Source: an uncultured delta proteobacterium (GTDB taxonomy: Bacteria > Desulfobacterota > Binatia > Binatales > Binataceae). From it: 64,000 nt of DNA. How positions within the stretch are numbered: the stretch's first letter is position 1; each line of letters opens with the position of its first letter. The position numbers and the translations under genes were made by a program. Shown piece by piece: positions 7,193-59,045 of this stretch. The stretch spans positions 556,343 through 620,342 of the forward strand of contig CAWHTV010000002.1 in assembly GCA_963832395.1 (NCBI GenBank), in the 5' to 3' direction. The notes below the pieces were generated by a model. That model ran no database searches and was not told the origin of the DNA. It was given only the letters and a program-made list of their open reading frames with translations.

Positions 7193-8101
7193 CTAAGACG
7201 GATTGAAATGCGAGTATTCGTGGAACTCGTAGCGCAGCGGGAATCCATGAGGATTGTCGACGACCTGGTCGAGTTCGAAATCAAGGATACGCTTGGCGCC
7301 GGCCAGCGTCGCCGCGCGCTCCGGGTCCCAGTCGATCGCCGCGCGTCCGGTAAGCTGGAGCGTTCGTCCGCTGTCGAAGCCGATGAAAATCATCCCGACG
7401 TGGGGGTTCACGACGATATTGCCGAGCGTGTTGAACATGTTGTTGCCGGAGTAGTCGGGAATCACGAGGTGGCGGCTGTCGACAATCCGCACGAAGCCGG
7501 GATTACCGCCGCGATGCGAAACGTCGGCGCCGGACTCGGGATGGTCGGTCGCGATGAAGAAGGTGTCGGCGCGCGCGATCCGTTGTTGCTGCTCGGCTGA
7601 AAGTTCCGCCGTTCGCACGATCGCCGCATCATCACCAGGGCTCCATTGCCGCTGACCGGTTGGCGAGCGGGCCTGTATGTAGTGCGGACAATTGCCATAG
7701 ACCTGGGCGTCCCGAATCTCGATTGCGCCCCCCTTTACTATATGACCCTCTCCGTTCAGGCGAAGTCTGCGCCGCGTGGCGAGGTCAGGAACAATCACCG
7801 CCGCATGCGCCGGTGACGCCAGGTTTTCCGCCAGCGGATCGCCGGCGGCGGGAACGGCCGCGATCCTTATCGACTGATAGTTGAGCACCTGGAGGAATCC
7901 CGCGTCACCCGTCAGCACCGAGGCCCACACGGCGCCGCTCCGGTCGACTGTTCCCAGCACCGCCATCCGTTGCGCGGCTACGAAGCCCGCCAGCGAGGGC
8001 AAAATTGCGCCGCTCATTGCCGCCGCCAATTTATCGGCCTGCCGGCGAACCCCTGCCTTCTCCTGTACCGCGATTTCTCCGTCGTGATATTTCATCACCA
8101 A
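7193..8101 (-). CDS. Pyridoxamine-5'-phosphate-oxidase-like FMN-binding split-barrel protein
   Basis: This is an intact 302-aa ORF. The C-terminal half reads [45 protein letters not shown], a pattern I associate with the PNPOx-related split-barrel family. Confidence 0.6.
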
Positions 8102-8126
8102 ACCACCGCCGACGACCGGGCTGGTT

Positions 8127-9705
8127 TCATCCGTGAGTCGGCTTTTTCATGATCACATTCACGTCCGTGGGATTGATCAGGTCCGGCACTTTCCAGCCAT
8201 CCAGATCGTACTCGGCCATGCATCGATCGACGAACCCGGTCAGCTCCTCCGCGCGGCCGGTGGCGATTGCCATCGGCAGGTTCTCGAGCCTGATGTTCTC
8301 GTAGTTGCCGGCGTAGTTGCGCTCGTAAAGCTCGTGGCGCCCGCCGAACTCGGTCCCCATCGCGTCCCACAGGACCTTGAGCAGCTTGACCCGCTCCAGC
8401 GCGTCGTAACCGTTCGAGCCGCGCAGATATTTGTCGAGGTACGGGCGCAGCTCCGGATTCTTGAAATCGGCGGCGTGCGAATTGAGATAGATCAGTCCGC
8501 TCGAAATCGTCTGCTCGGCGATTTCCTTGATCCGCGGATAGGCAGTGGTCGCAAGAAAGCGATACGCCATCCCATACTCGGCCTTGGGCAGGACCGTGCC
8601 GTTCACCCACGGGTCGGGCGTTTTGGCCATCGCGTCGGTCAGCCCCCAGAACACGTTGCGCCACGCCAGCACCTCGCCCGCCTGCACCTGTGCCGAGCGC
8701 AGCTCCTTTGAGCCGATCGCATCGATCGCCTTGAGAATCAGGCCGGCCAGAAAATCGAGCTTCACCGCGAGCCGCGTGCATCCGTGCAGCGTGAAGCGGG
8801 GGATGAAGCCCGAGCGCGGAAAGAAAGTGTTGGCCTTTTCGACGTCGCGGTAGACGAACAGGTTCTCCCACGGCACCAGCACCTTGTCGAGGATGAGGAC
8901 GGCGTCGTTCTCGTCCAGGCGCGAGGAGAGCGGATAGTCGAACGGACTGCCCATCGTCGCCGCCATCAACTCGTACGACGGCCGGCAGATGAGCTTCACG
9001 CCGCGCGTGTCCATCGGGATCATCGCGAAAATCGCGAGTCTCCGGCTTGCCGAGCGGAGTCGGGCCATAGAAGCCGATGAAATTGTAATGGGTCAGCGCC
9101 GAGCCGGTCGCCACGACCTTGGCGCCGCTGACGATCACGCCGGCGTCGGTTTCTTTCTCGACGTGCACGAAGACGTCGGTCACTTCGTCGGGCGATTTGC
9201 TGCGGTCGGTGGGCGGATTGACCAGCGCGTGGTTGAGGAACAGGCATTTTTCCTGCGCCTCGCGATACCATCGGAGCGCGTTTTCCTGGTAGGGCGCGTA
9301 GAACTCGGCATTGGCTCCCAGCGTGCCGGTGAGGCTCGCCTTGTAGTCGGGCGATCGTCCGAGCCAGCCATACGAGACTTTCGCCCACTCGGCGATCGCG
9401 TCGCGCGCACCCACCAGATCGTCGGCAGTGCGCGGGACCTTGTAGAACTTGTGCGTGAAGCCGCCGTTGCCGGTATCGGTGGGCGCGGTGAGAATCGGGC
9501 TCCTTTGCGGATCGTGCAGCGCGTCATACATCCGCGCCAGCATCCGCGCCGTGTTGCGGAAGGCCGGATGCGCGGTCACGTCCTTGACGCGCTCGCCGTA
9601 AATCCAGACCTCGCGCGAATCGCGGATGCTCTCCAGGAATTGCTTGCCGGTGAACGGCCGCTCGGATCGGCGTTCACTTCCCGTCTCGGGTGCCTCGCGT
9701 TTCAT
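8127..9705 (-). CDS. HpaB-family 4-hydroxyphenylacetate 3-monooxygenase oxygenase component; 1 frame break near 9040
   Basis: Translation starts at ATG 9705 (MKREAPE...[32 protein letters not shown]). The C-terminal 313-aa ORF 8127-9068 continues the same family (ICRPSYE...[20 protein letters not shown]...). Confidence 0.8.
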
Positions 9706-9895
9706 CCGGAACCTCCGTTGCACGCTCGAATCGCTGGGGCAGGCCGCTCGCCGACGGGCCACGCGCCATGACGCCAGATAGCGCAAATTTGCGGCGCGAG
9801 AAGCGCCGCGCAGCAGGCGAGCGACGCTTGTTGACGCCGCCGCCGCCTGCGATCTTAGTGGCGGGCGCGATCCCGCCCAAGCGAGGAGTCGAGTT

Positions 9896-10582
9896 ATGCC
9901 GCCGTCATCGAAGTCTCCAAGCCCGGTTGTGTTCCTGCTCGACGTCGACAACACGCTGCTCGACAACGACCGCGTGTCCGACGATCTGCGGCGCCATCTC
10001 ACGCGCGAGGTCGGCGCCGATCCCCAGGAGCGCTACTGGGCGATCTTCGAGGAGCTGCGAAAGGAACTCGGCTACGCCGACTACCTCGGCGCGCTGCAGC
10101 GCTACCGCGTCGAGCATCCGCACGACACCCATCTGTTCGAGGTCTCCTCGTACCTGGTCGACTATCCGTTCGCCAACCGGCTCTATCCCGGCTCGCTCGA
10201 CGCAATCGAGCATCTCGCCGCCTTCGGCCCGACGGTCATCCTGTCCGACGGCGACGTGGTGTTCCAGCCGCGCAAGGTCAACCGCTCGGGACTGTTCGAG
10301 GCGGTCGAGGGACGCGTGCTGATTTACATCCACAAGGAGCAGGAACTCGAGGACGTCGAGCGCCGCTATCCGGCAACGCATTACGTGCTGGTCGACGACA
10401 AGGTCCGAATCCTGGCGGCGGTCAAAAAGGCCTGGGGCAAGCGCGTGACCACGGTCTTCCCGCGCCAGGGGCACTATGCGCACGCCGCCGACGTGGCGAG
10501 CTATCCGCCGCCCGACATCACCGTCGAGCGCGTCGGCGACCTCGTCGGCTACGACCTGCCGGCGCTGCTCGGCACCCGATAA
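9896..10582 (+). CDS. HAD-superfamily hydrolase
   Basis: The ORF is intact. The N-terminal motif is [15 protein letters not shown] (the DxDxT nucleophile motif). Confidence 0.65.
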
Positions 10583-20398: not shown

Positions 20399-20815
20399 TC
20401 AGGATTTTTTCTGGACGCCGCCGCCGAGGCCAGATTCCCGAAGATCGGAAACCGGGCGATACTGGGTGCTCGGCTCGAGCCGCGGATTGCGCGACGGATC
20501 GAGCGGCGGGAGGCGCCCGTCGCGTTTCGCGGCGGCCTCGACGAGCGCGGTATCGGGCCGCCACGGTTCGGCGTCGCTGTTGCGAACGGCGGTGCCGCGA
20601 AAGTCGTAACGCATCCAGTAGACCGTGCGCATCGCGGCGCCCGCGGGGTCGCGACGCAGATGCGTGTAGATCCATTTCTCGTTGAAGCGCACGCCGTCTT
20701 CCTCGCGCTCGCGCGGATCGTCGAGGCTGCCCTCGGTACGGTCGGGCGTGCCGAGGATGGCGACGATCGCGTTGCGGGCCGGACGATCGTTCAATTCGCT
20801 CATACTTCCGCTCAT
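20399..20815 (-). CDS. Hypothetical 138-aa protein, translationally coupled to nuoEF
   Basis: It is the C-terminal part of ORF 20399-21901 (MSGSMSELNDRPARNAIVAILGTPDRTEGSLDDPREREEDGVRFNEKWIYTHLRRD...). Its ATG at 20815-20813 overlaps the nuoEF TGA at 20814-20812. I recognise no family. Confidence 0.5.
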   Translation of the reverse strand: MSGSMSELNDRPARNAIVAILGTPDRTEGSLDDPREREEDGVRFNEKWIYTHLRRDPAGAAMRTVYWMRYDFRGTAVRNSDAEPWRPDTALVEAAAKRDGRLPPLDPSRNPRLEPSTQYRPVSDLRESGLGGGVQKKS

Positions 20816-22602
20816 ACCTCGAAGCTCTCCGGGAAGGGGCATCGATGCTCCGCGATGTGGGCCTCGAAGTCGGCGCGGAACTGCTTGAGGAACGCGCGCG
20901 CGGCCCACGACGCGCCGTCGGCGAGCGCGCAGATGCATTTGCCGTCCATGAAATCGAAAGTGTCGGCCAGGGTCTGGAGGTCCTGCGGCTCGCCCTCGCC
21001 GCTTTCGATCCGGCGGAGCGTCTTGTAGGTCCATCCGGTGCCCTCGCGGCACTGGGTGCATTGGCCGCACGATTCGTGCTCGAAAAAACGCGCCACCACC
21101 AGCGCCGTGCGCACCATGCAGGTGCGATCGTCCATCACGATCGCGCCGCCGGTGCCGATCAGCGTGCCGGCCGCGCGCAGCGATTCGTGATCCATCGCGA
21201 CGTCGATCTGATCGCCGCGCAACACCGGCATCGAGACGCCGCCCGGAATCACCGCCTTGATCGGCCGCCCGCTGGGCACGCCGCCGGCGTACTGATAGAT
21301 GAGGTCGCGCAGCTTCACGCCGAGCCTGAGCTCGAAAATCCCGGGATTGTTGACGTGGCCGCTTACGCCGAACAGCGTGTGGCCGGCGGCGTTCTTGACC
21401 CCTTCGTCGAGGAACCATTGCGCGCCGCGCATCACGATCGCCGGCACGTGCGAGAGCGTTTCGACGTTGTCGACCGTGGTCGGCTGGCCCCACAATCCGG
21501 CCTGCGCGGGAAAGGGCGGGCGCTTGCGCGGCTGCCCCTTGCGCCCTTCCATCGATTCCAGCATCCCGCTTTCTTCGCCGCAGATATACGCGCCCGCGCC
21601 TTGCTGGATGGTGATGTCGAAGCGGCGGTTGAAGCCGAGCGCGTTGTCGCCGAGAATTTTGGCTTCGTAGAGCGAGCGGATCGCCGCGCTCATCGCCGCG
21701 AATTCCTCGACGTATTCGCCGCGGATATAGATGAAGGCCGCGGTGGACTCCATCGCCATCGCCGCGATCATGATTCCCTCCAGCGGCAGGAACGGATTGC
21801 GCGACATGATCTGGCGATCCTTGAAGGTGCCGGGCTCGCTCTCGTCGGCGTTGACCGCGAGGTAGCGCGGGCGCGCGTCGCGCGGCGGCATGAACGTCCA
21901 CTTAAGGCCGGTGACGAAGCCGGCGCCGCCGCGGCCGCGCAGGTTGGAATCCTTCACCAGCGTGGCGAGGTCTTTGGGCGCCATCGCACCCGCCTTGGGC
22001 GCCGCCTCGAACCCGCCGTGCTCGCGGTATTCCTCGAGCGTCAGCCGTTTTTCATCGCCGCGCGGCAGCAGGTAGCCGTCGACGCCGTCGGGAACGCGCG
22101 AGATGACCGGCGCGGGGCGAGACGCCGCGCGCGCCGCTTCGGGCGATTCAAGCAGGCTCGCGGCGAACTCCGGCGTTACGTTTTCCAGGTACGGATTGCG
22201 GTTGACCTGCACCACCGGCGCGGTCGCGCATGAGCCTAGACATTCGACTTCCGCGATCGCGAAGCGGCCGTCGGGCGTCGCGGTGCCCGATTTGATCCCG
22301 AGCCGGCGTTCGAGCTCGCGCACCACGCCGCGCGCGCCGCGCAGGCAGCATGGCAGGTTGGTGCAGACCTGGATGACCGCCTGTGCGCGAGGCAGGTTGA
22401 AGAGCGAATAGAACGAGGCGACCTCGGCGACTTCGCTGGCGCGCATCCCGAACAGCGGCGCCAGCTCGGCGAAGGCTTCGGGGCCGAGCGCGCCCAGGTC
22501 GTCGCGGGCCAGATAGATCGCCGCCAGCAGCGCGCCGCGCGGGTTGGGAAAGCGCGCCTGCTCGGCGCGGATCTTTTCCTGCGTTTCAGCCGACAAGCCC
22601 AT
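20812..22602 (-). CDS. nuoEF: Fused NADH dehydrogenase subunits NuoE (24 kDa, 2Fe-2S) and NuoF (51 kDa, FMN/NADH, 4Fe-4S)
   Basis: The ORF is intact at 596 aa. The NuoE part reads VCTNLPCC...ECLGSCATAP. The NuoF part reads NLRGRGGAGF, NADESEPGTFKDR, YICGEESGMLESMEG and ESCGQCTQCREG...GKCICALADGA. Confidence 0.9.
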   Translation of the reverse strand: MGLSAETQEKIRAEQARFPNPRGALLAAIYLARDDLGALGPEAFAELAPLFGMRASEVAEVASFYSLFNLPRAQAVIQVCTNLPCCLRGARGVVRELERRLGIKSGTATPDGRFAIAEVECLGSCATAPVVQVNRNPYLENVTPEFAASLLESPEAARAASRPAPVISRVPDGVDGYLLPRGDEKRLTLEEYREHGGFEAAPKAGAMAPKDLATLVKDSNLRGRGGAGFVTGLKWTFMPPRDARPRYLAVNADESEPGTFKDRQIMSRNPFLPLEGIMIAAMAMESTAAFIYIRGEYVEEFAAMSAAIRSLYEAKILGDNALGFNRRFDITIQQGAGAYICGEESGMLESMEGRKGQPRKRPPFPAQAGLWGQPTTVDNVETLSHVPAIVMRGAQWFLDEGVKNAAGHTLFGVSGHVNNPGIFELRLGVKLRDLIYQYAGGVPSGRPIKAVIPGGVSMPVLRGDQIDVAMDHESLRAAGTLIGTGGAIVMDDRTCMVRTALVVARFFEHESCGQCTQCREGTGWTYKTLRRIESGEGEPQDLQTLADTFDFMDGKCICALADGASWAARAFLKQFRADFEAHIAEHRCPFPESFEV

Positions 22603-22640
22603 CGTGTTTCACGCTCGCGCCGTCGCGCCGGCCGCGTGCT

Positions 22641-23888
22641 CTAGCGGTCGCATTCGCCGCCGATCATGTTGATCAAGTCGAAAGTCGGCACCACGTCGGC
22701 CAGCATTCCGCCGGTGATCATCTTCTCCAGCGCCGACATGTTGGAAAAGCTCGGCGCGCGGCATCGGCATTTGTACGGCTTGCCGGTGCCGTCGCTCACG
22801 ATATAGAAACCGAGTTCGCCGTTGGCGCCCTCGACCGCGTGGTAGACCTCGCCCGGCGGCACCAGTCCGCCCTCGGTGACCAGCTTGAACTGGTCGATCA
22901 GTTCTTCCATGCGGCCGAACACCTTGCCCTTGCGCGGCCAGCGCACGCGCGGGTCGTCGGAGTTTACGGGTCCGGCGGGAATTTTCTCGAAGCACTGCGC
23001 GATCATGCGGCGGCTCTGGCGCAACTCCTCCAGGCGCACCAGGTAGCGATCGAAGTTGTCGCTATGCTCGCCGACCGGAACGTCGAAGTCCAACTCTCCG
23101 TATACGAGATACGGCTGCACGCGGCGCACGTCGTAGGGCACGCCGCCGGCGCGCAGGAGCGGACCGGTCACGCCATGCGCGATCAGCGTTTCGGGCGCCA
23201 GATGGCCGGTGCCCTCGACGCGGTCGCGAAAAACCGGATTTTGCGTGAGCAGCTTGTCGGCGTCGTCGAGCAGGCTGAGCGAACGGTCCAGCCGCTCGAC
23301 GGCGAAGCGATCGAAGCCCTCGGGAAGATCGGCCGAGACGCCGCCGATGCGGATGTAGTTGGTGGTGACGCGCGCGCCGCAAAGCGCGTCGAGCAGATCG
23401 CACATCAACTCGCGCGCCTCGAGCAGGTAGAGAAACGGCGTCATCGCCGCCAGCTCGAGCGCCATCGCACCGAGGCACAGGTAATGATCGCTCATGCGCG
23501 AGATTTCGCCCGCGATCACCCGGATGAAGTCGCAGCGCGGCGGCGTGCGCAGGTCCATCAGCTTCTCGACCGCGAGGCAGTAGCCGACGTTGTTGAGCAT
23601 CGGCGAGCTGTAGTTCAGCCGGTCGGTGTACGGGATGTTCTGGTAGTAGTAGCCGGTCTCGCACTCCTTCTCGAAGCCGCGATGGAGATAGCCGACCTGG
23701 ACGTCGGCCTTGACCACGCGCTCGCCGTCGAGGTCGAGCACCATCTTGACCGTGCCGTGGGTCGCCGGATGCGACGGGCCCATCTGCATCCGCATCAGCG
23801 GCGTCTGCAGATCGCGCGCCGGATCGGCGGGCGGCGCGTCAGTGGGGGCGGCGGGGTTCTTTGGCTCCAGGTCCGGCATAGGGTTCAA
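22641..23888 (-). CDS. nuoD: NADH dehydrogenase subunit D (49 kDa)
   Basis: The ORF is intact at 415 aa. It carries MGPSHPATHGTVKMVLDLDGE, HRGFEK, PYTDRLNY and a C-terminal IGGECDR. Confidence 0.9.
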   Translation of the reverse strand: MNPMPDLEPKNPAAPTDAPPADPARDLQTPLMRMQMGPSHPATHGTVKMVLDLDGERVVKADVQVGYLHRGFEKECETGYYYQNIPYTDRLNYSSPMLNNVGYCLAVEKLMDLRTPPRCDFIRVIAGEISRMSDHYLCLGAMALELAAMTPFLYLLEARELMCDLLDALCGARVTTNYIRIGGVSADLPEGFDRFAVERLDRSLSLLDDADKLLTQNPVFRDRVEGTGHLAPETLIAHGVTGPLLRAGGVPYDVRRVQPYLVYGELDFDVPVGEHSDNFDRYLVRLEELRQSRRMIAQCFEKIPAGPVNSDDPRVRWPRKGKVFGRMEELIDQFKLVTEGGLVPPGEVYHAVEGANGELGFYIVSDGTGKPYKCRCRAPSFSNMSALEKMITGGMLADVVPTFDLINMIGGECDR

Positions 23889-24492
23889 TCGGTTGTTCGT
23901 CGTGTTTGGCGTAGTCCTTGCGCAGCGGATGGCCGACGAATTCGTCGTAGAGATAGATGCGGCGAAGGTCCGGATGGCCGTCGAAGCGGATGCCGTAGAG
24001 GTCGAAAGTTTCGCGTTCGAGCCAGTTGGCGCCGGGCCATAGCGCGCTCAGGCTCGCGATCGCCGGATCGTCCTCGGGCACGCGGCACTTCACGCGCAGG
24101 CGATGGAGCAGGCGGGTGGAGACCAAATGATAGACCACGGCGAAGCGCGGAGCGTCGCCGCGCGCGGGCAGGTTCACGCGATGGCGCCACTCGGCGCGCT
24201 TGCGCACCAGGTTGTGATTGCGATCCCAGGTCTCGGGCGCGTTCTGGAAGCCGTCGGGCTGGCCGAAATAGTCGACGCAGGTCACGTCGAGCAGCAGGTC
24301 GAAGCCAAGCTCGGGCGAGTCGCGCAGCGTGCGCGCCGCTTCGAGAATATTCTCGCGCGCGACGTGGATGCAGTCGTCGCCGCGAAAGCTCTGATGCTCG
24401 GCGATCAGCGGACCGAGCCGCGCGATCACCTTTTGCAGCAGCGCGGAAAGCTCGGGCGGTGCGGGCGTTTTTGGTTCCTCGGCGGCGCTCAT
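23839..24492 (-). CDS. nuoC: NADH dehydrogenase subunit C (30 kDa)
   Basis: The ORF is intact at 217 aa (LLLDVTCVDY...FAVVYHLVS...ANWLERETFDLYGIRFDGHPDLRRI). It overlaps the annotated nuoD start by 50 nt. Confidence 0.85.
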   Translation of the reverse strand: MSAAEEPKTPAPPELSALLQKVIARLGPLIAEHQSFRGDDCIHVARENILEAARTLRDSPELGFDLLLDVTCVDYFGQPDGFQNAPETWDRNHNLVRKRAEWRHRVNLPARGDAPRFAVVYHLVSTRLLHRLRVKCRVPEDDPAIASLSALWPGANWLERETFDLYGIRFDGHPDLRRIYLYDEFVGHPLRKDYAKHDEQPIEPYAGPGAKEPRRPH

Positions 24493-24498
24493 CGGTCC

Positions 24499-25047
24499 TT
24501 ATTCGTAGTGGCCGCGCAGAAAATCGGTTCGGGTCTTGAGGCGATCCTGCGGCACCAGCAGATCGGTCTTGTGCCAGAGCGAGCCGCGGCGCGAGTAGCT
24601 CGCGATCTCGACCTCGCGGCTCATCACGATCGCCTCCTCGGGGCAGGCCTCCTCGCACAGCCCGCAGAACATGCAGCGCGACATGTCGATGTCGAAAATC
24701 TCGGGATAGCGCTCGACCTCGTCGGCGGTCTCGGCGGGAAAAATCGTGATGCAGGTGGTGGGGCAGGCCCATTCGCACAGCCCGCACGCGACGCATCGCT
24801 CCTTGCCGTTCTCCATCTGCACCAGCACCGGCATCCCGCGCATCGCCGGCGGCTGCACGAAGCGCTGCTCGGGAAAATAGACCGTGAAGTCCTGGCGCCC
24901 GCGCATGAAGCCAAACAGGTTGCGCAGCAGATGCGCCGTGGCGACCCACAGCCCCACCAGCACCGCCCACAACGCGTGCGGCCCGACCAGGCTTGGCGCC
25001 GGCCGCACCACCTTTACTACTCGAATCGCCATCCGGCGTCGCTTCAC
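24499..25047 (-). CDS. nuoI: NADH dehydrogenase subunit I (2x 4Fe-4S ferredoxin)
   Basis: It carries CVACGLCEWACP and CMFCGLCEEACP. The start is GTG 25047 or ATG 25032. Confidence 0.85.
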   Translation of the reverse strand: MKRRRMAIRVVKVVRPAPSLVGPHALWAVLVGLWVATAHLLRNLFGFMRGRQDFTVYFPEQRFVQPPAMRGMPVLVQMENGKERCVACGLCEWACPTTCITIFPAETADEVERYPEIFDIDMSRCMFCGLCEEACPEEAIVMSREVEIASYSRRGSLWHKTDLLVPQDRLKTRTDFLRGHYE

Positions 25048-25054
25048 CTGTCCG

Positions 25055-25110
25055 CGAGTACCAGTTTTGCAGTATCAGCTTCGCAGTATCAATCTTGCGG
25101 TATCAGTTTA
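25055..25110 (-). repeat. Four tandem copies of a 14-nt unit filling the MFS-nuoI spacer
   Basis: The minus strand reads taaaCTGATACCGC aagaTTGATACTGC gaagCTGATACTGC aaaaCTGGTACTCG. The first copy starts at the MFS stop codon. The array is AT-rich in a GC-rich genome. Confidence 0.8.
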
Positions 25111-26508
25111 GGCCGGCGACGGCCGCACCGTTGGCGCCGCGGCCTCGCCCGAGCTTTGCCCGGCCTTGACCGGCACCCATCCGCCGCGCACCGCGAGCAT
25201 TGCGGGAATAAGCGTCGCCATGCCCGCCACGGCCACCCACATCCATGCGGCCCATCCGTAGTGGCTCGAAACATAAGCGACCAGCGGACCCGAGATCGCT
25301 ATCCAGCCGCGATAGATCAACTGGAAGAACGACCATCCGCTCGCCTGCAACGCCGGCGAGATATCCTCGAGCAGTTCCGAATATTGCGCGCACCACGGGA
25401 TGAAGGCGAAGGCGACCAGACCGCCGAGCAGGAACATCACCGCGCTTAGCTGGAACGGCGGCAACGGATTGGAAAACGTTCCAATCCACCAGATCAGCAC
25501 CGCAAGACTGGCGACGGTGCCGATCAACACCAGCGGCTTGCGCACCCGCAGCTTGTCCGAGAGCAATCCGGCCGGCACCAGCATGAACAGATTGAGCAGC
25601 CAGAAGTACGACGCTATCTTGTCCGCCTCGGCCGGAGAGTAGTGGAACGCCCGCGTGAACATCACCGGGAAAAACGTCTGGCTGGTGATCGGCAGAGTCA
25701 GGAAGGCCACGCATCCGACCACCAGCACCCACACCTCCCAGCGGCTGAGCAACTCCTTGAAGGCCGCGCCGCCGCTGGCCGGAACTTCCATCGCCGTCTC
25801 GCGCAGGTGTTCGGCGGGCGCGGCGGCCACCGTGGTTTCGCTCTCGACGATGGTCAGGCGCAGGTTCGGATGAAGATCTTTAAGCCACAGCAGCACCGGG
25901 ATGTACATCAGGATCGACAGCAGATCCCCATTATCCAAATCTGCGATTGCCAGGTGCCGAAGATGGGCAGCGTCTCACCGCTGATGAAGTTCCACAGGAA
26001 AATGCACCCGACCGCGCCGACCGTGAGCAGGCCGAAGGCCGCGCCGCGGCTCACGCGCGGCGACATATCGCGGGTGAGGCCGCCGAGCGCGCCCCACATC
26101 AGCCCCGCCGTCAGATTCATCGCGCCGCGGATGATCACGAACGACCAGAACCCGGTCATCAGCAGATTGGCAAAGGTCAATACGATGATGACCGCGAGAC
26201 AAACGTCGATGACGATGATGCGGCCGTGGCGATCGGCGAGCGGCCCGCCGATCATCGCCGACCCGCCGGAGAGCAGCACCGCGAACAGCAGAAACAGGGT
26301 GAAGTTTTCCAGGCTGAAGTGCAGCGTCGGAATCCACAGCGGCAGCAGCGGCGCGAATTGGAATTCGTAGAAGGAGACGATCGTGGCGAGCACGGTGAGC
26401 ATCAGCATCGCCCAGCGATGCGCGCCGACCGGGATAGGTCTCGAGCGTGCGATGGGTCGCGAGGTAGCCCTTGAGGCCACCCGGTTCCGAAACCGCTGCG
26501 GTCGCCAT
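25108..26508 (-). CDS. MFS-type permease embedded in the nuo cluster; 2 frame breaks (about 26440 and 25930)
   Basis: The start is ATG 26508 (MATAAVSEPGG...). The hydrophobic segments join across ORFs 25908-26714 and 25108-25938. MFS loop motifs are GGPLADRHGRIIV in the first half and GLLSDKLRVRKP in the second half. Confidence 0.7.
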
Positions 26509-26599
26509 AGATTTTTGTCCCCCTGCGGCTTTCCGCCGGCGCGCGAGGCCGGTTCGCAAACCACAGAGTGCGTCAATTGATCGCCCGACGGCAAGCGAT

Positions 26600-28258
26600 T
26601 CAGCGGTCGCCCGCGCGTTGCGCGCCCGCCTCGTCGAGCATCGTGCCGCTGGCTCCCAGGGCCTCCAGCGAAATCCCGGCGAAGCGCGGATGCGCGCGCC
26701 GTATCGGTTCCCACATCGCTTCCGGATCGAAGCGGCGCTCACCGCCGATCGATCGCGTTGAGCAGACGGGTGAAGACCTCGCCATCGCTAAGCCATCCCG
26801 GCGGCGTCTCGATCGCCTTGAAGATGCGCTGCACGCGCCCGGCGTGATTGGTGAACGAGCCGTCCTTCTCGGCGAATGTCGTGGTGGGAAATACCACGGT
26901 CGCGCGGCCCAGGCGCGGATCGAGCCTCAGCGTCTGCACGATCAGCAGTTCGAGCCGTCCCAGGATTGCCTCGAGACGTTCGGGCGCGAGCGCGTCAAGC
27001 AGGTCGACGGATCGTCGCCGCAAAGATAGAGTCCCTTGAGCTCGCCCGCTTCCACGGCCCGCAGCAGCTCGCCGAGCCCGTCGTCGTCGCCGCTCACCAG
27101 TCCCAGCTCGCGCACGCCGCGCGCGTTAGGCGCCTTCTCGGCCTTGATCAGGAAGTCGTCGGCCGTTCCGCGCCGCACCGCCATCGCGGCCTTGCCCGCG
27201 CCGGCCGCGCGCATCAGCTCGCCGAAGCGAAAGTTTTCCTCGTTGGTGAGATGGGGCGAGATGACCGCGCCGAGCGCGCCGTCGCCGTGGCGCGCCTTGA
27301 GCGCGGCGATCGCCGCGGACGCGCGCGCCAGCGCCTCTTGCCACGGCGCCTGGACGAGCGCGCCGTTCTCCGCGACCATCGGCGCGCGCAGGCGCTCGGG
27401 CGCGTCGACGAACTTGTAATCCAGGCGCCCGTGGTCGCACATCCAGGTGTCGTTGACCGCGTCGTTGCGGCGCGGAATCAGCCGCCAGATGCGATTGCGA
27501 TACTCCGAGACCATGATGTTGCAGCCGTTGGAGCATCCGGGGCAAACGCTGGCGGTCTCCTGGAGAAACCACACGCGGATGCGATGATGGAAGTCCTTGC
27601 TTTCGAGCGCGCCCACCGGGCAGATGTCGGCGGTGCAGATGGAGTAGTCATTGTCGAGGCGGCGGTCATAGACGTCGAGCACCGAGCGGTCGCCCAGGTT
27701 GAAAACCGCGAGCTCGCCGGTCTTGCTGATTTCACGGCAAAAGCGCACGCAGCGCCGGCACAGGATGCATCGTTCCTGGTCGAGCAGCATGCGCTCGCCG
27801 ATGTCGACGCGCTTCTGATGCTTGCGCCGCGGCTCGAGCGTGCGCGCATGGCGGCTGCCAAAGCGCATCGCGTAGTTCTGCAGCCAGCACTCTCCGGCCT
27901 TGTCGCAGATCGGGCAATCCAGCGGATGGTTGAGCAGGAGCATCTCGAGCACGCCGCGGCGCGCCAGCGCGACCTCCGGATCCTCCGTATGCACGATCAT
28001 CCCGTCGCGCACCTGCGTGTTGCACGAGATCTGCAGCTTCGGCATCCCCTCGATCTTCACCTGGCAGAGCCGGCAACTGCCGTCGATGCTGAGCTTGGGA
28101 TGGTAGCAGTAGTGCGGGATGTCGAGCCCCGCGTCGAGCATCGCCTGCAACAGCGGCGTGCCCTCGGGCGCCTCGATCGCGCGGCCGTCGACCGTGAGCT
28201 TCGCGGTCTTGGGAGCGTTGGTCTTCGATGCGTTAGTCGAGCTTGCGTCCGCTGCCAT
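26600..28258 (-). CDS. nuoG: NADH dehydrogenase subunit G (75 kDa-type, short form); 2 frame breaks (about 27010 and 26770)
   Basis: It carries 2Fe-2S CYHPKLSIDGSCRLCQV, HPLDCPICDKAGEC, CILCRRCVRFC and ICPVGAL. The C-terminal part continues in ORFs 26739-27023 and 26600-26785. Confidence 0.8.
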
Positions 28259-54131: not shown

Positions 54132-54824
54132 CTAGCCCAGCGGATGGCCGCCGAAGGCCCACGGATGAATCGCGACCAGCACGACCGTCAGCGCCGCTCC
54201 GATTGCGATCGCCAGCCACGGCAGGTCGTCGCTGGGATGGCATCGCTGACGCCCGCTGAGCAGCGCCGCGCCGGGCATGAACGAGGTCTGCTCGACGAAG
54301 CGGCGGTACGGCTCGCCCATCGAGCGCAGCTTGCGATGGTCCTGGTGCAAGCCGCCGAAGATGCCGAGCGCCGGGAACGTGCCGAAGAACACCAGGTCGC
54401 CGGCCCATCCGTTCATCAACATGTGCGCGAAGCCGAAAATAGTGAAGGCGATGAACCCCGGATGGCGCGAGAGCTTGAGGATGCCACGCGGCATTAGATT
54501 GTCCGGCGCGCCGAGCGCTGCGGGATTGGGAGTCATCAGCGACGCGACCCACATTATCAGCGCCACCAGCATCATCGGCCCAATCAGCCATCGCAGCGGC
54601 GCGATCCCACGCAAGTACCACAGCATCGGGCCCGCGTGCTTGTGATGGGCGAACACGTCCACCAGCGGGATGAAGGTCCCCAGCGCGACCAGCGAGTAGA
54701 TTCCGCGAAAGGGTTGCTCGCCAACCGTCCCGGCAATCGCTCCGCGCACCGGATCCGAGGACAGGATGAAATGACCGGCCAGAAATAGTGCGGCCCACAG
54801 CGCTATCAGCCCGACGGCTCCCAT
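54132..54824 (-). CDS. NnrU-family membrane protein
   Basis: The internal ATG at 54824 gives MGAVGLIALWAALFLAGHFILSS...KLSRHPGFIAFTIFGFAHMLMNG... Confidence 0.65.
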   Translation of the reverse strand: MGAVGLIALWAALFLAGHFILSSDPVRGAIAGTVGEQPFRGIYSLVALGTFIPLVDVFAHHKHAGPMLWYLRGIAPLRWLIGPMMLVALIMWVASLMTPNPAALGAPDNLMPRGILKLSRHPGFIAFTIFGFAHMLMNGWAGDLVFFGTFPALGIFGGLHQDHRKLRSMGEPYRRFVEQTSFMPGAALLSGRQRCHPSDDLPWLAIAIGAALTVVLVAIHPWAFGGHPLG

Positions 54825-54876
54825 CGTTTTTCCCGGGCGGGGTTTTCCTTTGCGATAGACCCGAACCAGGTATGCA

Positions 54877-55414
54877 CTAAAGTGCGCAGACCCGAGGGGC
54901 CCACACCGCGATAAACCGTTCAAAGCCCACGCCCATCGCGATAACGTGCGCCAGTTCCACAATCTCTGGATCGCTGAATTCCTGACGCAGCAGGTTGAAA
55001 AACTGCTCGTCCAATGCCTGCGGATCGCTGCCCAGCTTATCCGCGAACTTCAGCGCCAACTTCTCGCGTCGCGTAAGCACTTCACTCACTTCGTAATGAT
55101 CCACCTCGGCGCTTTTCTCAGGAGGCACTTTCGGCGGGGGCTGATGGTGGCGCATGCCGACTCGACTTAGCGGCGTAGGGTGAGCAGTCGTTGTTGCGCG
55201 CCAGCTTGATCCGGACCAACTCCTTCAGCTCGCGAGGCAACTTGCCGTTGTCGAGCAATTGGACATAGCCCGACCATATGATCTCGGCAATCTCCGGCTT
55301 ATGGGCGAAGATCTTGAGCCCGTTCACATAGTCAGGGTCGTCTCTGAAGCGTCTGACCAGAGCCATCATTCCGGATGAGAGCTTGGCCTCATCGACCGGA
55401 TTAATCCCTGCCAT
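54877..55414 (-). CDS. AhpD-like / carboxymuconolactone-decarboxylase (CMD) family protein, paralog 1; 1 frame break near 55136-55170
   Basis: ORF 55118-55414 (...LKELVRIKLARNNDCSPY...) joins ORF 54877-55155 (...EVDHYEVSEVLTRREKLALKFADKLG...EIVELAHVIAMG). It is colinear with paralog 2. The break is probably in the G5 run at 55136-55140. Confidence 0.65.
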
Positions 55415-55466
55415 GATTTTCCTCCTGCCCGCTGCGAGTCAGACGGGAACGCGCACCTTAGGCCTC

Positions 55467-55988
55467 TCACGCCTCTTCCACTTTGAAGACGGAGAGCAAC
55501 CGGCCCCAACCGATACAGACGCCGATTACAACGGACAGTTCGACGATTTCAGCTTCGGAAAATTCGGTCCGCAGGAGTGCCATGAACGCGTCGTCGACAG
55601 CCTGGTGCTCGACGCCCATCTTTTCGGCGAACTTCAACGCCAGCCTCTCGCGCCGGGTAAGCACGGAGCTGAATTCGTAGTTGGGAATTTCCGCGATGCG
55701 CTCTTCCGTAAGGCCTTTATCCATCACCGATGGATAGCGAAAGCGCTTTCACATGAAGCAGTCGTTGTTCTGGGCGATTTTGATCCGAACGAGTTCCTTG
55801 AGCCGGGAATCGAGCAGTCCTCCGTCGAACATCTCGACGTAGGCGTTCCACATCGGTTCGACGAACTCCTGGCTATGAGCGAAGATTCCAAGCCCTGTGA
55901 AGTAGCCGGGATCGAACTTTATCTTCTCGGCCAGAGACGCCATACGCGGAGTCATCTCGCTCTGCTCAAGAGGCTTTAATCTTGCCAT
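55467..55988 (-). CDS. AhpD-like / CMD family protein, paralog 2, with an in-frame TGA (candidate selenocysteine, C-F-M-U)
   Basis: ORFs 55749-55988 and 55467-55727 are in the same frame. They are separated only by the TGA at 55751-55749 and 7 sense codons. The TGA falls exactly where the second Cys of the family's CxxC motif belongs (IAQNNDCFM[TGA]KRFRYPSVMDKGLTEERI). Confidence 0.6.
55719..55748 (-). other. Candidate bacterial SECIS hairpin
   Basis: The minus strand reads UGA-aagcGCUUUcgcu-AUCCAU-CGGUG-AUGGAU-AAAgGC. A 6-bp upper stem starts 13 nt after the UGA, the apical loop contains GGU, and a lower helix GCUUU/AAAGC is possible. Confidence 0.45.
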
Positions 55989-56419
55989 CGCGTGTGCTCC
56001 CTATTGCGCCAGGGCGGTTGCACCAAAACGAGCGATTCGTCTGTGCACCGACGCCCAACGCCTAAGCTAATATGCCCACGGAGATCGAAACCGGAATCTT
56101 GATTTTTGAAACCTTGATCCGGGTAACACGGACATCAAGCAGCGTGCAACCCCGAATCTCGACCCATCGGTTTTCCCTCATGCAGAGACGGCGGCGGCAT
56201 GAATCGACCGCAACCGCACTCAACTGTAGTCGCACCGCGGTGGGCAGGATAGAGGACCGCTGGCGAAGAGAGCGCTCCTCATAACCGGTGAAACGAAATC
56301 AAGGGCAGCACTGAATGACCGAATCAATGATGCCGGGCGATGGAGACCTGTCTGAGAGTCAGCTCGATAGTTACCAGGACCGAGTGATGCCCAAGTTGAT
56401 AGCGTCGCCAGGCGATGAC

Positions 56420-57571
56420 TCAGGGAAGAATGGGGCACTCCCTACGTTGTATAGGACCGGACTTTGCGCCGAGAGCGTACAGATCGATCCATTGCCCTGC
56501 CTTAACCTCGACGGATCGACGTTCAGGCGGACTTCCTTGTTCGGATTGAAAATCAAGCATGTAACGACCAGGCGGCAAAGGAAGCACAAAACCACCATCG
56601 GAATATCCGCATCCGCCGCATGTGACCATGTCTGCGCTACCCTCCCGAAACACCTCGACACATCTTCTCTCTGTTGGAATTCCGAAGATCGGTTCGTTGC
56701 CATAGCATAGTGTCACTGGGGGGCCGGCTCGGCCTCGAACTCCCGAGTTGTAAGCGGTTTGCGCGACAATCACAGGCTCTTGACATGTCTTTGTCTGAAC
56801 AAGGGAAGAAAACTGGTAGCTGACGTAACTTTTTGCCGATATGCACGTGTGCCCGGGAATGCATTCTGCGTCCGTCGAGCACTCCGCGCCAATCCGGGTC
56901 TCCTTGGGCGCAAAGATGTGTTGCCAATGATGCGGTTTGACGATGACTAACTGCCGCCACGAATTGCCGCCAGAGGCAGGGGTCCGATATGGGTTCTGCC
57001 CTACAAACACTACGTAACGGCCGGGAGCCAGTGACAACTGGAAGCTCCCGTCGTTCGCGCAAGCGGCTGCTGCGACCAAATTCATATAGTCCCGCCGGAA
57101 TCGCTCGCGATCGATACATGAACCGTAGTCGGGGCTCCTAGGCTTGCCCGGATCGCCAGTAGAGGAATAGCCAAGCGGCACGTGGCTCTGCGCATCGTAA
57201 GCCTCGACGCATCGGTTCTTCCATTTGTCACGCTGAGATTCGTCCAAGATTAACGTAGCGTCTATGCTTTTTTTATTCGCACCTGGGAGATCAGATTCTT
57301 TCCGAAGTGAATCGATGTTTTCCCGCATCAACTTGAGATTTTCCTCAAAGTGCGGAACGACCCCTAGTATTCCCGAGTCGGGCGTCCCCGTCCCGGCGAA
57401 AGACGGAACCGCGTAAAACTGCATCACGACAACGAGCACAAGAGGCGACACCCAAATAGATCGTCGACTACGCGGTCTGCTTTTTTCACGAAGCAGAAAG
57501 GTGAAAACGAAGTAGATGATGGTCGAGTTAATTGGCGCTAACTTTTCCATTTCCGGACCCCAGATTATCAC
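56420..57571 (-). CDS. Hypothetical secreted or membrane-anchored Cys-rich protein; visibly lower G+C
   Basis: The ORF is intact at 383 aa. It has an N-terminal hydrophobic anchor (VSPLVLVVVMQFYAVPSFAG) and about 12 Cys. It also has two LxPGRY(V/M)-type motifs (LAPGRYVVFVG, LPPGRYMLDF), as in carboxypeptidase-regulatory-like beta-sandwiches. Confidence 0.55.
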   Translation of the reverse strand: MIIWGPEMEKLAPINSTIIYFVFTFLLREKSRPRSRRSIWVSPLVLVVVMQFYAVPSFAGTGTPDSGILGVVPHFEENLKLMRENIDSLRKESDLPGANKKSIDATLILDESQRDKWKNRCVEAYDAQSHVPLGYSSTGDPGKPRSPDYGSCIDRERFRRDYMNLVAAAACANDGSFQLSLAPGRYVVFVGQNPYRTPASGGNSWRQLVIVKPHHWQHIFAPKETRIGAECSTDAECIPGHTCISAKSYVSYQFSSLVQTKTCQEPVIVAQTAYNSGVRGRAGPPVTLCYGNEPIFGIPTERRCVEVFREGSADMVTCGGCGYSDGGFVLPLPPGRYMLDFQSEQGSPPERRSVEVKAGQWIDLYALGAKSGPIQRRECPILP

Positions 57572-57598
57572 GACCTGATGACCGCCTTATGCAAGCGA

Positions 57599-57635: not shown

Positions 57636-58185
57636 ATGGACCCAGGGGCCAAGCTCGCATTGCCGCCGCCGTTCGAGGAGGCGCTCAGCCGCCACGAGCG
57701 CGAGATCATGCGCTTTCTGCTGCGCATGACCCGCGATCAGAACGACGCACTCGATCTCTTCCAGGAAACCTGGCTGCGCGCTTACCGCGCCTATCCAAAA
57801 CTCGACTCGGAGCAGGGTCTGCGGCCATGGCTGTATCGAATCGCGACCAATCTCTGCCGCAACCGCGCGCGCGACAATTTCAGACGTGCGCGCGTGATCA
57901 GCAACGGCGACGATCCCACCGACGGCGATCATCGTCTTGCGTCCGCATCTGGTTCCGACTTCGCGTCTGCCGGCGGCGGACACGAGGGCGTGACTCCATC
58001 TCCGGCGTGCGATCGCGGGACTGCCCCACAAGCAGGGCCAGGCGCTGGTGATGCGCAAGTTCGCGGGACTCGAATACGAGGAGATCGGCGCAGCGCTGGA
58101 GTGCTCGGCGGACAGCGCGCGGGCCAGCGTCTACCAGGCGCTGAAAAAGCTCAAGGCGACTTCGATAGGCGTACCAAGGCGATGA
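57636..58185 (+). CDS. ECF-type sigma-70 family sigma factor; 1 frame break near 57990
   Basis: Region 2 lies in the 57636 frame (REIMRFLLRMTRDQNDALDLFQETWLRAYRAY...RPWLYRIATNLCRNRARD). Region 4 lies in the +1 frame (LRRAIAGLPHKQGQALVMRKFAGLEYEEIGAALECSADSARASVYQALKKLK) and ends at TGA 58183-58185. Confidence 0.8.
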
Positions 58186-59045
58186 AATCCAGAACGGTGA
58201 ACATCATGAATGCGACGCTCAAGGACGAGATACTGATGCGCGAGATGCTCGACGATGACGGGCCGCTCGAGATGGACGGCGCGCCCGACGACGCCGCGGT
58301 CGAAGCGGCGCTGCGCGCGGTACGTCCAAAGCTCGCACGGACGCTTGGCCGTGCGCGCAGACCGCTCGCACGCGTCGGGGTAATCGACTCGCCGGTCGGC
58401 CGCCTGCTGGTGGCCGAGAGCGCGCGCGGTCTGCTCGCGGTGCAGTTCCTCGACGTGTCCGACGCGCCCGACGCGCTGGCGGGGCTCAAGGAGGGATTCG
58501 ACCTGGTCGAAGACCCGCGCGTCGGCGAACGTATCGGGCGCGAGATCGAGCGCTACCTGGGCGGCGACATGCATGCGCTCGACCGCCCGGTCGACCTCAG
58601 CCTGGTGCGGAGCGATTTTCAGCGGCGCGCGCTGATGCGGCTCCGCCGTACGATACCGCCCGGCTCGGTCATCACCTACCAGGGGCTGGCGGCGGCGGTC
58701 GGCGCGCCGTCGGGCCAGCGCGCGATCGGCAACACGATGGCCACCAATCCGGTGCCGCTATATGTCCCGTGCCATCGCGTGATCCGCTCCGACGGCACGA
58801 TCGGCAACTACGGCGGCGGCGTGGCGCGCAAGATCAAGTTGCTGCGCGCCGAGGGCTTCAGCGTGGCTCGCGATCATCGATTGCCCGCCGGCAGCGTGAT
58901 GGGGCATCTGGTGACGCACATCTTCTGCCGTCCGCAATGCCATGCGGCGATGCGTGCCAGCCGCGCAAAATCGGTTATCTTTGCCAATTCAGGCCGTGCA
59001 CGCAGCGCGGGACTGCGTGCGTGCAAGCTTTGCCATCCGGCCTAG
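58182..59045 (+). CDS. Methylated-DNA-protein-cysteine methyltransferase (MGMT/Ogt) fused to a C-terminal Ada-type Zn(Cys)4 domain, sitting in the anti-sigma position
   Basis: ATG 58182 overlaps the sigma-factor TGA (ATGA). The MGMT core reads ITYQGLAAAVGAPSGQRAIGNTMATNPVPLYVPCHRVIRSDG. The C-terminus reads IFCRPQCHAAMRASRAKSVIFANSGRARSAGLRACKLCHP, which parallels E. coli Ada FCRPSC...(26 aa)...CKRCQP. Confidence 0.8.
   Translation: MKSRTVNIMNATLKDEILMREMLDDDGPLEMDGAPDDAAVEAALRAVRPKLARTLGRARRPLARVGVIDSPVGRLLVAESARGLLAVQFLDVSDAPDALAGLKEGFDLVEDPRVGERIGREIERYLGGDMHALDRPVDLSLVRSDFQRRALMRLRRTIPPGSVITYQGLAAAVGAPSGQRAIGNTMATNPVPLYVPCHRVIRSDGTIGNYGGGVARKIKLLRAEGFSVARDHRLPAGSVMGHLVTHIFCRPQCHAAMRASRAKSVIFANSGRARSAGLRACKLCHPA

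Follow-up and report, generated by a model that had tools for sequence, protein, structure and literature searches.

Gene 1 lies on the minus strand of the window, the whole 64,000-nt stretch of DNA analyzed here. It is very probably an intact gene for an AhpD/CMD-fold oxidoreductase of about 19 kDa, predicted from the sequence to have the UGA at codon 80 decoded as selenocysteine (Sec). We favor the Sec reading because the UGA is conserved, a Sec/Cys pair is seen at the redox site, the downstream sequence is coding, and a SECIS-like structure follows. A preliminary description of this DNA had proposed a selenoprotein here, and the proposal is supported by conservation of the TGA, Cys-form homologues, purifying selection and a covarying hairpin.

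Gene 1 and its redox motif

The features of gene 1 are as follows.

55467..55988, minus strand: gene 1, predicted AhpD/CMD-family selenoprotein gene; 173 codons, one ORF through an internal TGA
55988, minus strand: ATG start of gene 1, read from the sequence
55749..55751, minus strand: internal in-frame TGA, codon 80; predicted selenocysteine, the U of C77-F-M-U80
55758..55760, minus strand: TGC codon of Cys77, first residue of the CxxU redox motif; invariant in all aligned homologues
55469-55467, minus strand: terminal TGA stop of gene 1, read from the sequence
55997..56002, minus strand: Shine–Dalgarno-like AGGGAG, 8 nt 5' of the gene 1 ATG, read from the sequence

Direct translation gives 79 codons upstream of the internal TGA, ending ...IAQNNDCFM, and 93 in-frame codons downstream of it (KRFRYPSVMDKGLTEER... 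/ KRFRYPSVMDKGLTEERIAEIPNYEF...), up to the terminal TGA. The preliminary description had laid out the gene in this way, with an N-terminal half, TGA at 55751-55749 and a continuation in the same frame, and the sequence reads as described. It had also anticipated that standard gene callers would miss the gene. Public records indeed show two separate proteins, a 79-aa 'hypothetical protein' (HVB81311.1) and an 85-aa product (HVB81310.1), from Candidatus Binataceae. On inspection of the sequence, neither internal start candidate (GTG and ATG, codons 88 and 89) is preceded by a purine-rich motif comparable to AGGGAG. A scan of 54700-56500 for promoters and terminators gave no match. The preliminary description had called gene 1 the only interrupted gene of the window with both halves in one frame. 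Besides gene 1, other same-frame ORF pairs separated by a stop were found in a crude scan of the window; two of these were inspected, and they look like borders of neighboring genes.

Profile scores for gene 1 were computed with U replaced by C. Residues 53-122 matched the Pfam CMD family (PF02627) at 40.1 bits (cut-off 23; E = 3.7e-10), and this match crosses the TGA. The best NCBIfam match, NF053654 ('YciW-related (seleno)protein'), scored 66.1 bits versus a cut-off of 310, far below threshold, and TIGR01926 ('peroxidase-related enzyme') scored 28.1 bits versus a cut-off of 81.8, which was likewise not passed. Relatives score 20-59 bits on TIGR01926, and Cys-form relatives also fall far below the NCBIfam cut-offs. 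Scores below the TIGR01926 and NF053654 cut-offs indicate a sister group that has no dedicated NCBIfam model. Judged by sequence, gene 1 belongs to this group, which is marked by CxxU/CxxxRY..GLTEE and set apart by the NCBIfam model scores.

Alignments to known proteins locate the TGA within the redox motif. A phmmer search against PDB sequences aligned residues 58-169 to Atu0492 (2gmy) and PA0269 (2ijc, 2o4d, 7xw1), without gaps around the motif, such that Cys77 and the TGA fall on the two cysteines of the NGCA[FY]C motif in these proteins. The C-F-M-U reading had been placed at the CxxC of the family in the preliminary description, and the TGA does align with the second Cys of CxxC in relatives. 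CxxC is found at the aligned site in 2gmy, PA0269, P0024-27, P0065, P0072, P0084, P0087, P0114 and P0130; in the distant homologue P0024, CGPC is aligned at the CxxU of gene 1. Full-length Cys-form homologues are single chains with CxxCxxxRY..GLTEE at the same place. One such Sec/Cys pair aligns without gaps, with P0130 reading NQCQNCLLTRYPDSIEDGLTEE and gene 1 reading NDCFMUKRFRYPSVMDKGLTEE.

PA0269 (of P. aeruginosa) and Atu0492 are the best sequence and fold matches, with CxxC on the same helix. They carry Cys where gene 1 has Sec, and gene 1 has about 57 extra N-terminal residues. The proton relay proposed for PA0269 consists of Glu36, Cys48, Tyr50, Cys51 and His55 (PMC3141380), whose counterparts in gene 1 are Glu65, Cys77, Met79, Sec80 and Arg84. 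Glu36 of that relay (PMC3141380) is thus conserved as Glu65, whereas His55 is replaced by an invariant Arg84. Among orthologues, Glu65, Cys77, the TGA and Arg84 are all invariant, and position 79 is Met or Thr. Gene 1 hence departs from the Glu...Cys-x-x-Cys...His pattern of the AhpD relay, with Arg84 at the His position, and its chemistry may therefore differ from that of AhpD. Mycobacterium tuberculosis AhpD, a member of the CMD fold family that reduces AhpC, has a CxxC-type center at Cys130-x-x-Cys133 (PMC3141380). Structurally it matches only remotely (TM about 0.3), with its active site elsewhere in the chain.

Codon 80, selection and the downstream hairpin

Codon 80 is TGA in all 28 related loci fetched, and TAA or TAG in none. 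Among these loci are MAGs of Binataceae from soil and of marine Gammaproteobacteria, plus eight metagenomic lineages that are more distant. The preliminary description had named the aligned codon in orthologues as a place to look; TGA stands there in 28 of 28, with Cys in distant homologues. Among the related loci recovered, we found no close orthologue with Cys at codon 80. Four GTDB genomes encode gene 1 orthologues, all with TGA at the identical codon.

L001: 'uncultured delta proteobacterium' MAG, 98% amino acid identity to gene 1
L002: Candidatus Binataceae, 87% amino acid identity to gene 1
L003 and L004: Gammaproteobacteria MAGs, 70-73% amino acid identity to gene 1

JGI metagenomes were scanned with two patterns, QEFVEPM and NNDCF[MT]C, the second of which requires a Cys codon. 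This gave 13 further loci with TGA at codon 80. The pattern NNDCF[MT]C yielded no Cys form, meaning that the confirmed loci must come from QEFVEPM, and since the Cys pattern came up empty the sampling of loci was not biased to TGA. Another four contigs carry an identical N-terminal half of gene 1, with the TGA present. Each of the GTDB, JGI and identical-half loci has a single in-frame stop, which is always TGA and always at codon 80. Because independent short-read contigs from JGI metagenomes, with the identical N-terminal half, also show the TGA, it is not an assembly error in gene 1.

An exhaustive HMMER search with the C-terminal half of gene 1 returned many short 'proteins' beginning just past codon 80, together with full-length Cys forms. 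DNA was recovered for eight of the short matches (41-51% identity), and each had the same architecture, with TGA at CxxU. Seven of the motifs read NQCQL-U, NQCLT-U, NGCLF-U, NECAT-U, NDCFT-U, NACHY-U and NRCHY-U; the eighth is cut by the contig end. In a library of 1.84 billion proteins, many of the best matches to the C-terminal half (P0060-P0207) were fragments of 75-125 aa starting past CxxU (loci L022-L029). That fragments start just past CxxU indicates that Sec forms of the subgroup are widespread and systematically mis-called as two ORFs.

To compare selection and the hairpin across orthologues, we used a set of 11 distinct full-length coding sequences. Both halves of gene 1 are under strong purifying selection. 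By the Nei–Gojobori method, dN/dS was 0.05-0.11 upstream of the TGA (codons 1-79) and 0.065-0.086 downstream of it (codons 81-173), with synonymous sites saturated in the deeper comparisons. The eight codons from the TGA to the next ATG show dN = 0 and dS of 0.2-0.6 within clades, and only conservative changes (K/R, R/K, F/L) between clades. Arg84 is retained through CGC, CGA or AGA codons. The reading frame and spacing of gene 1 are unchanged across relatives, with no indel versus any of them. From this purifying selection and the Pfam CMD match that crosses the TGA, the sequence 3' of the TGA is predicted to be translated.

Just downstream of codon 80 lies a SECIS-like element.

55718..55736, minus strand: hairpin UAUCCAUC-GGU-GAUGGAUA, with a perfect 8-bp stem and a GGU triloop at 55728-55726

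The hairpin starts 12 nt 3' of the internal UGA. A hairpin had been reported here with a 6-bp stem, a 5-nt loop and a spacing of 13 nt; the element is real and GGU does lie in its loop, but the stem, loop and distance are 8 bp, 3 nt and 12 nt. Its sequence occurs nowhere else in the window, where chance would give 0.01 matches, and this ruled out a REP-like repeat. Folding of the 19-nt hairpin gave –7.8 kcal/mol (z = –3.2), and for the 71-nt context alone, folding was on a par with shuffled sequences (z = –0.74). At 1.4% of random positions in the window, a perfect hairpin with 7 bp or more starts 8-20 nt further on; the figure is 0.9% when a G early in the loop is also required. Because of that 1.4% rate, the hairpin by itself is only mildly unusual; its conservation is decisive.

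In the 11 distinct orthologues, the nucleotides of the hairpin are invariant except for one change (A to G in L010, which turns a U-A pair into U-G). Among codons for invariant amino acids, degenerate codons are frozen in 5 of 6 cases inside the hairpin versus 1 of 83 elsewhere (Fisher p = 8.6e-7; 11 orthologues). When eight distant lineages are included, for 14 lineages in all, compensatory changes on both sides are seen in 7 of the 8 stem pairs. Paired cells amount to 93.8% across these 14 lineages, and to 33-59% after the 3' arm is slid by 1-3 nt. Shuffles reached the observed values in 0 of 500 trials on four of five summary measures and in 5 of 500 on the fifth. Loop bases 1-2 are invariably GG (a GGN triloop), and the stem measures 6-8 bp. 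The stem sequence diverges across lineages yet keeps exactly the same columns relative to the UGA. The next possible start codon, by comparison, shifts by lineage, lying 0, about 4-5, or 8 codons after the UGA. A fixed hairpin register alongside a variable restart codon implies that the UGA, rather than a restart site, sets where the element lies. These data show that the hairpin is conserved as an RNA structure and keeps a constant distance to the UGA.

A 'possible lower helix' had been suggested beneath this stem. It forms in single sequences, in differing registers, and RNAalifold retains only the upper stem; the lower helix therefore has no conserved register across sequences. Scanning 55400-56100 against Rfam at E <= 10 turned up no credible match, to a SECIS or to anything else. 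The SECIS of E. coli fdhF is a stem–loop directly 3' of the UGA, with a loop G-U about 20 nt after the UGA, and only its apical part is needed or conserved. Unlike it, the gene 1 hairpin has a GGN loop of 3 nt and a perfect stem of 6-8 bp and lacks a bulged U; SelB binding is predicted.

Gene 2, the neighborhood and the state of the assembly

Directly 3' of gene 1 lies a paralogue.

54877..55414, minus strand: gene 2, paralogue of gene 1 (about 45% identity), 52 nt 3' of gene 1
55426-55421, minus strand: ribosome-binding site AGGAGG of gene 2

Gene 2 has the motif NNDCSPY, with Tyr at the Sec position, and a C-terminus reading PRVCAL. Its copy in the window is frameshifted by one extra base (AGT-C-GGC) at about 55159-55160, versus L001 and L006. 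An intact gene 2 of 178-181 aa lies directly 3' of gene 1 in L001-L004, L006, L007, L011, L012, L014, L015 and L018-L021, and an intact copy (178 aa) is present in all close relatives, among them contigs with an identical N-terminal half of gene 1. Across the clade, wherever a locus has enough downstream sequence, the gap between gene 1 and the paralogue is 45-58 nt and the paralogue carries NNDCS[AP]Y and PRVCA[LIV]. Among the results of the first protein search, P0001-P0013 and P0015 are paralogues of the gene 2 type. The nearest full-length paralogue has Tyr, neither Cys nor Sec, at the position aligned with codon 80, a point against the Sec reading. The clade with the Sec-enzyme/paralogue cassette comprises Binataceae and a group of marine Gammaproteobacteria. 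More distant Sec forms are without the paralogue.

For the fold, we used an AlphaFold model of P0015, a database orthologue of gene 2 rather than gene 1. The model is all-helical (pLDDT 76); confidence is low for the C-terminal tail and for the loop that follows Cys77. In the PDB it best matches PA0269 AhpD, Atu0492, mlr4105, other 'peroxidase-related' proteins and the debrominase Bmp8.

The genes flanking the pair differ by lineage. In Binataceae relatives the pair has an ECF sigma factor and an Ada-like gene upstream of it, and is followed downstream by NnrU and TatD; the marine MAGs have unrelated genes around it. Given these differences, the pair of gene 1 and gene 2 is itself the conserved unit. 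No ahpC neighbor was found near gene 1. Between gene 1 and the sigma gene, the window holds a specific insert of 1.4 kb (56162-57583) that is absent in L001 and L006. An ORF within it (56420-57571, minus strand) encodes 383 aa with no family assignment and a weak CarboxypepD_reg match below threshold. At the same spot, L019-L021 have a different insert, encoding a 566-aa Trans_reg_C/hydrolase protein and two small secreted-looking proteins. The site at 56162-57583 is a variable insertion hotspot.

Several other genes in the window are interrupted. An ORF at 57636-59045 (plus strand) encodes a chimera of 469 aa, with an ECF sigma N-terminus (residues 12-104) and an Ada/Ogt domain (residues 246-408). 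Relatives have two separate genes at this site, for a 177-aa sigma factor and a 287-aa Ada-like protein, and the ORF of the window carries one extra base at each of three places, near 57993, 58158 and 58181. The gene for HpaB (4-hydroxyphenylacetate 3-monooxygenase; 8095-10002, minus strand) is in two frames with a break near 9068, and a NuoG-like gene (26739-28258, minus strand) is split near 26990. Versus L001 and L006, window-specific single-base insertions outnumber deletions. These split genes suggest an indel-prone assembly or a decaying genome. The NuoG-like gene belongs to a complex I-type cluster (20812-28258, minus strand) with a fused NuoE-NuoF (596 aa) and NuoD, an ordinary context unrelated to gene 1.

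We also searched for Sec machinery. No selA, selB, selD or tRNA-Sec was found in the window plus flanks of up to 20 kb from relatives, a sample of about 206 kb from many genomes that says little about their presence. ARAGORN detected no tRNA-Sec in the window and 14 loci; NCBIfam models found no SelA, SelB or SelD among 20 large ORFs of the window; and tblastn with an approximate E. coli SelD query had no match in the 206 kb. An altered genetic code was ruled out: TGA terminates about 25 of the about 68 putative ORFs in the window, gene 1 included, and the code is therefore standard.

Other readings, proposed mechanism and significance

Could the UGA of gene 1 be a true stop? Peptides of 79 and 85 residues might then assemble into a split CMD protein, with the hairpin aiding restart. 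Gene callers and public records annotate exactly these two products, 79 aa and 85 aa, and the internal ATG falls within the 3' arm of the hairpin. Yet this start is without a Shine–Dalgarno sequence, and the position of the restart codon varies by lineage whereas the register of hairpin to UGA is fixed. Moreover, the codons from UGA to ATG evolve like coding sequence, the frame is always retained, and the break falls exactly at the second redox residue of a protein whose Cys forms are single chains. We consider a split gene highly improbable. A nonsense mutation or a miscalled base, in a decaying or misassembled genome, would be in keeping with the frameshifts in gene 2, the sigma/Ada ORF, HpaB and the NuoG-like gene. 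But the same TGA recurs in 28 of 28 independent loci that span different assemblies and phyla, the sequence 3' of it evolves with a dN/dS of about 0.07, and gene 1 has no indels versus relatives. The likelihood that gene 1 is a pseudogene or the product of such an error is close to nil.

The UGA might instead be recoded independently of SelB, by a near-cognate or suppressor tRNA (Cys, Trp, Gly) or through an altered code, with the hairpin acting as a general stimulator of read-through. The inserted amino acid is not readable from sequence, and Sec machinery was not located in the about 206 kb searched, both of which fit this account. Against it, TGA is the ordinary stop for about a third of the ORFs in the window, and codon 80 falls at the redox Cys, a typical place for Sec/Cys exchange. 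The element also has the hallmarks of a bacterial SECIS, namely a hairpin just 3' of the UGA and a small loop with conserved G (PMC1088965, PMC9312934), and accepted selenoprotein families are documented to have this CxxU arrangement. SelB-independent recoding is accordingly given very little weight here, and the decoding of codon 80 as Sec is the reading we carry forward.

Under the Sec reading, the mRNA hairpin 12 nt 3' of the UGA would act as a bacterial SECIS, recruiting SelB with Sec-tRNA(Sec) to the ribosome paused at the UGA, and translation would then proceed to the stop at 55469-55467. The redox center of the product would be Cys77-x-x-Sec80 in lieu of the CxxC of the family, with the Glu of the AhpD relay kept as Glu65 and the invariant Arg84 predicted to stand in place of the relay His. 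Sec80 would serve as the attacking nucleophile, on a peroxide or an oxidized partner protein, and Cys77 would resolve it into a selenenylsulfide. Judged by its family, the enzyme may be a peroxide or disulfide reductase that cycles via this Cys77-Sec80 selenenylsulfide. The Arg-for-His change and the fold match to Bmp8 are reasons why other thiol or selenol chemistry may be at work. Bmp8 (6ohj/6ohi), a CMD-fold, thiol-dependent reductive dehalogenase, is one of the best fold matches to the paralogue model and shows that the CMD fold supports chemistry beyond peroxide reduction. The likeness is at the level of fold only (about 20% identity), and no halogenation or bmp-type genes lie near gene 1.

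The products of gene 1 and gene 2 may cooperate, as a hetero-oligomer or a redox relay. A stronger version, which we offer tentatively and think rather unlikely, starts from gene 2 as a duplicate that exchanged the second redox residue for Tyr and acquired a Cys on a flexible C-terminal tail. This tail Cys would recycle the Cys77-Sec80 selenenylsulfide of gene 1 within an obligate heteromeric selenol/thiol relay, making an AhpD-type system with a built-in reductant.

The kind of protein that gene 1 encodes is already known. AhpD-like/CMD-domain selenoproteins with CxxU were described from the Sargasso Sea in 2005, are established families, and in ocean metagenomes few selenoprotein families are more abundant (PMC1088965, PMC2398784, PMC9312934, PMC13188914). 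The preliminary description was right that Sec-containing AhpD-like members had been reported earlier, in work that runs from Zhang et al. 2005 and 2008 to reviews of 2022 and 2026 (PMC1088965, PMC2398784, PMC9312934, PMC13188914). The published families are AhpD-like 1 (COG2128/YciW, TIGR01926) and AhpD-like 2 or CMD-domain protein (PF02627), found in marine and soil metagenomes. They resemble gene 1 in superfamily, in the replacement of the second Cys of CxxC by Sec, and in a SECIS hairpin that directly follows the UGA and carries G in its small apical loop; like gene 1, they come from environmental bacteria, and they are abundant with a putative function. Unlike in the gene 1 clade, a tandem CxxY paralogue goes unmentioned in the accessible text of the papers on them. 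The novelty is modest: a subgroup that lies below all curated NCBIfam cut-offs and stands in public records as two hypothetical proteins, its very regular SECIS, and the clade-specific coupling to a CxxY paralogue with a C-terminal Cys. A literature search found no report of a selenoprotein in Binatia/Binatota.

General knowledge of Sec decoding and of AhpD-like selenoproteins is unchanged by gene 1. For annotation, the finding offers a correction, in that public records of dozens of MAGs and metagenomes break the gene into a hypothetical protein of 79 aa and an 'alkylhydroperoxidase family enzyme' of 85 aa. The SECIS is sharply defined, with a fixed register, a stem of 6-8 bp and a GGN triloop, and would make a good covariance model for the whole subgroup. 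For the biology of the organisms, the Sec-plus-paralogue cassette is a candidate redox pair, and the implication is that Binataceae, an uncultured soil lineage, use selenocysteine.
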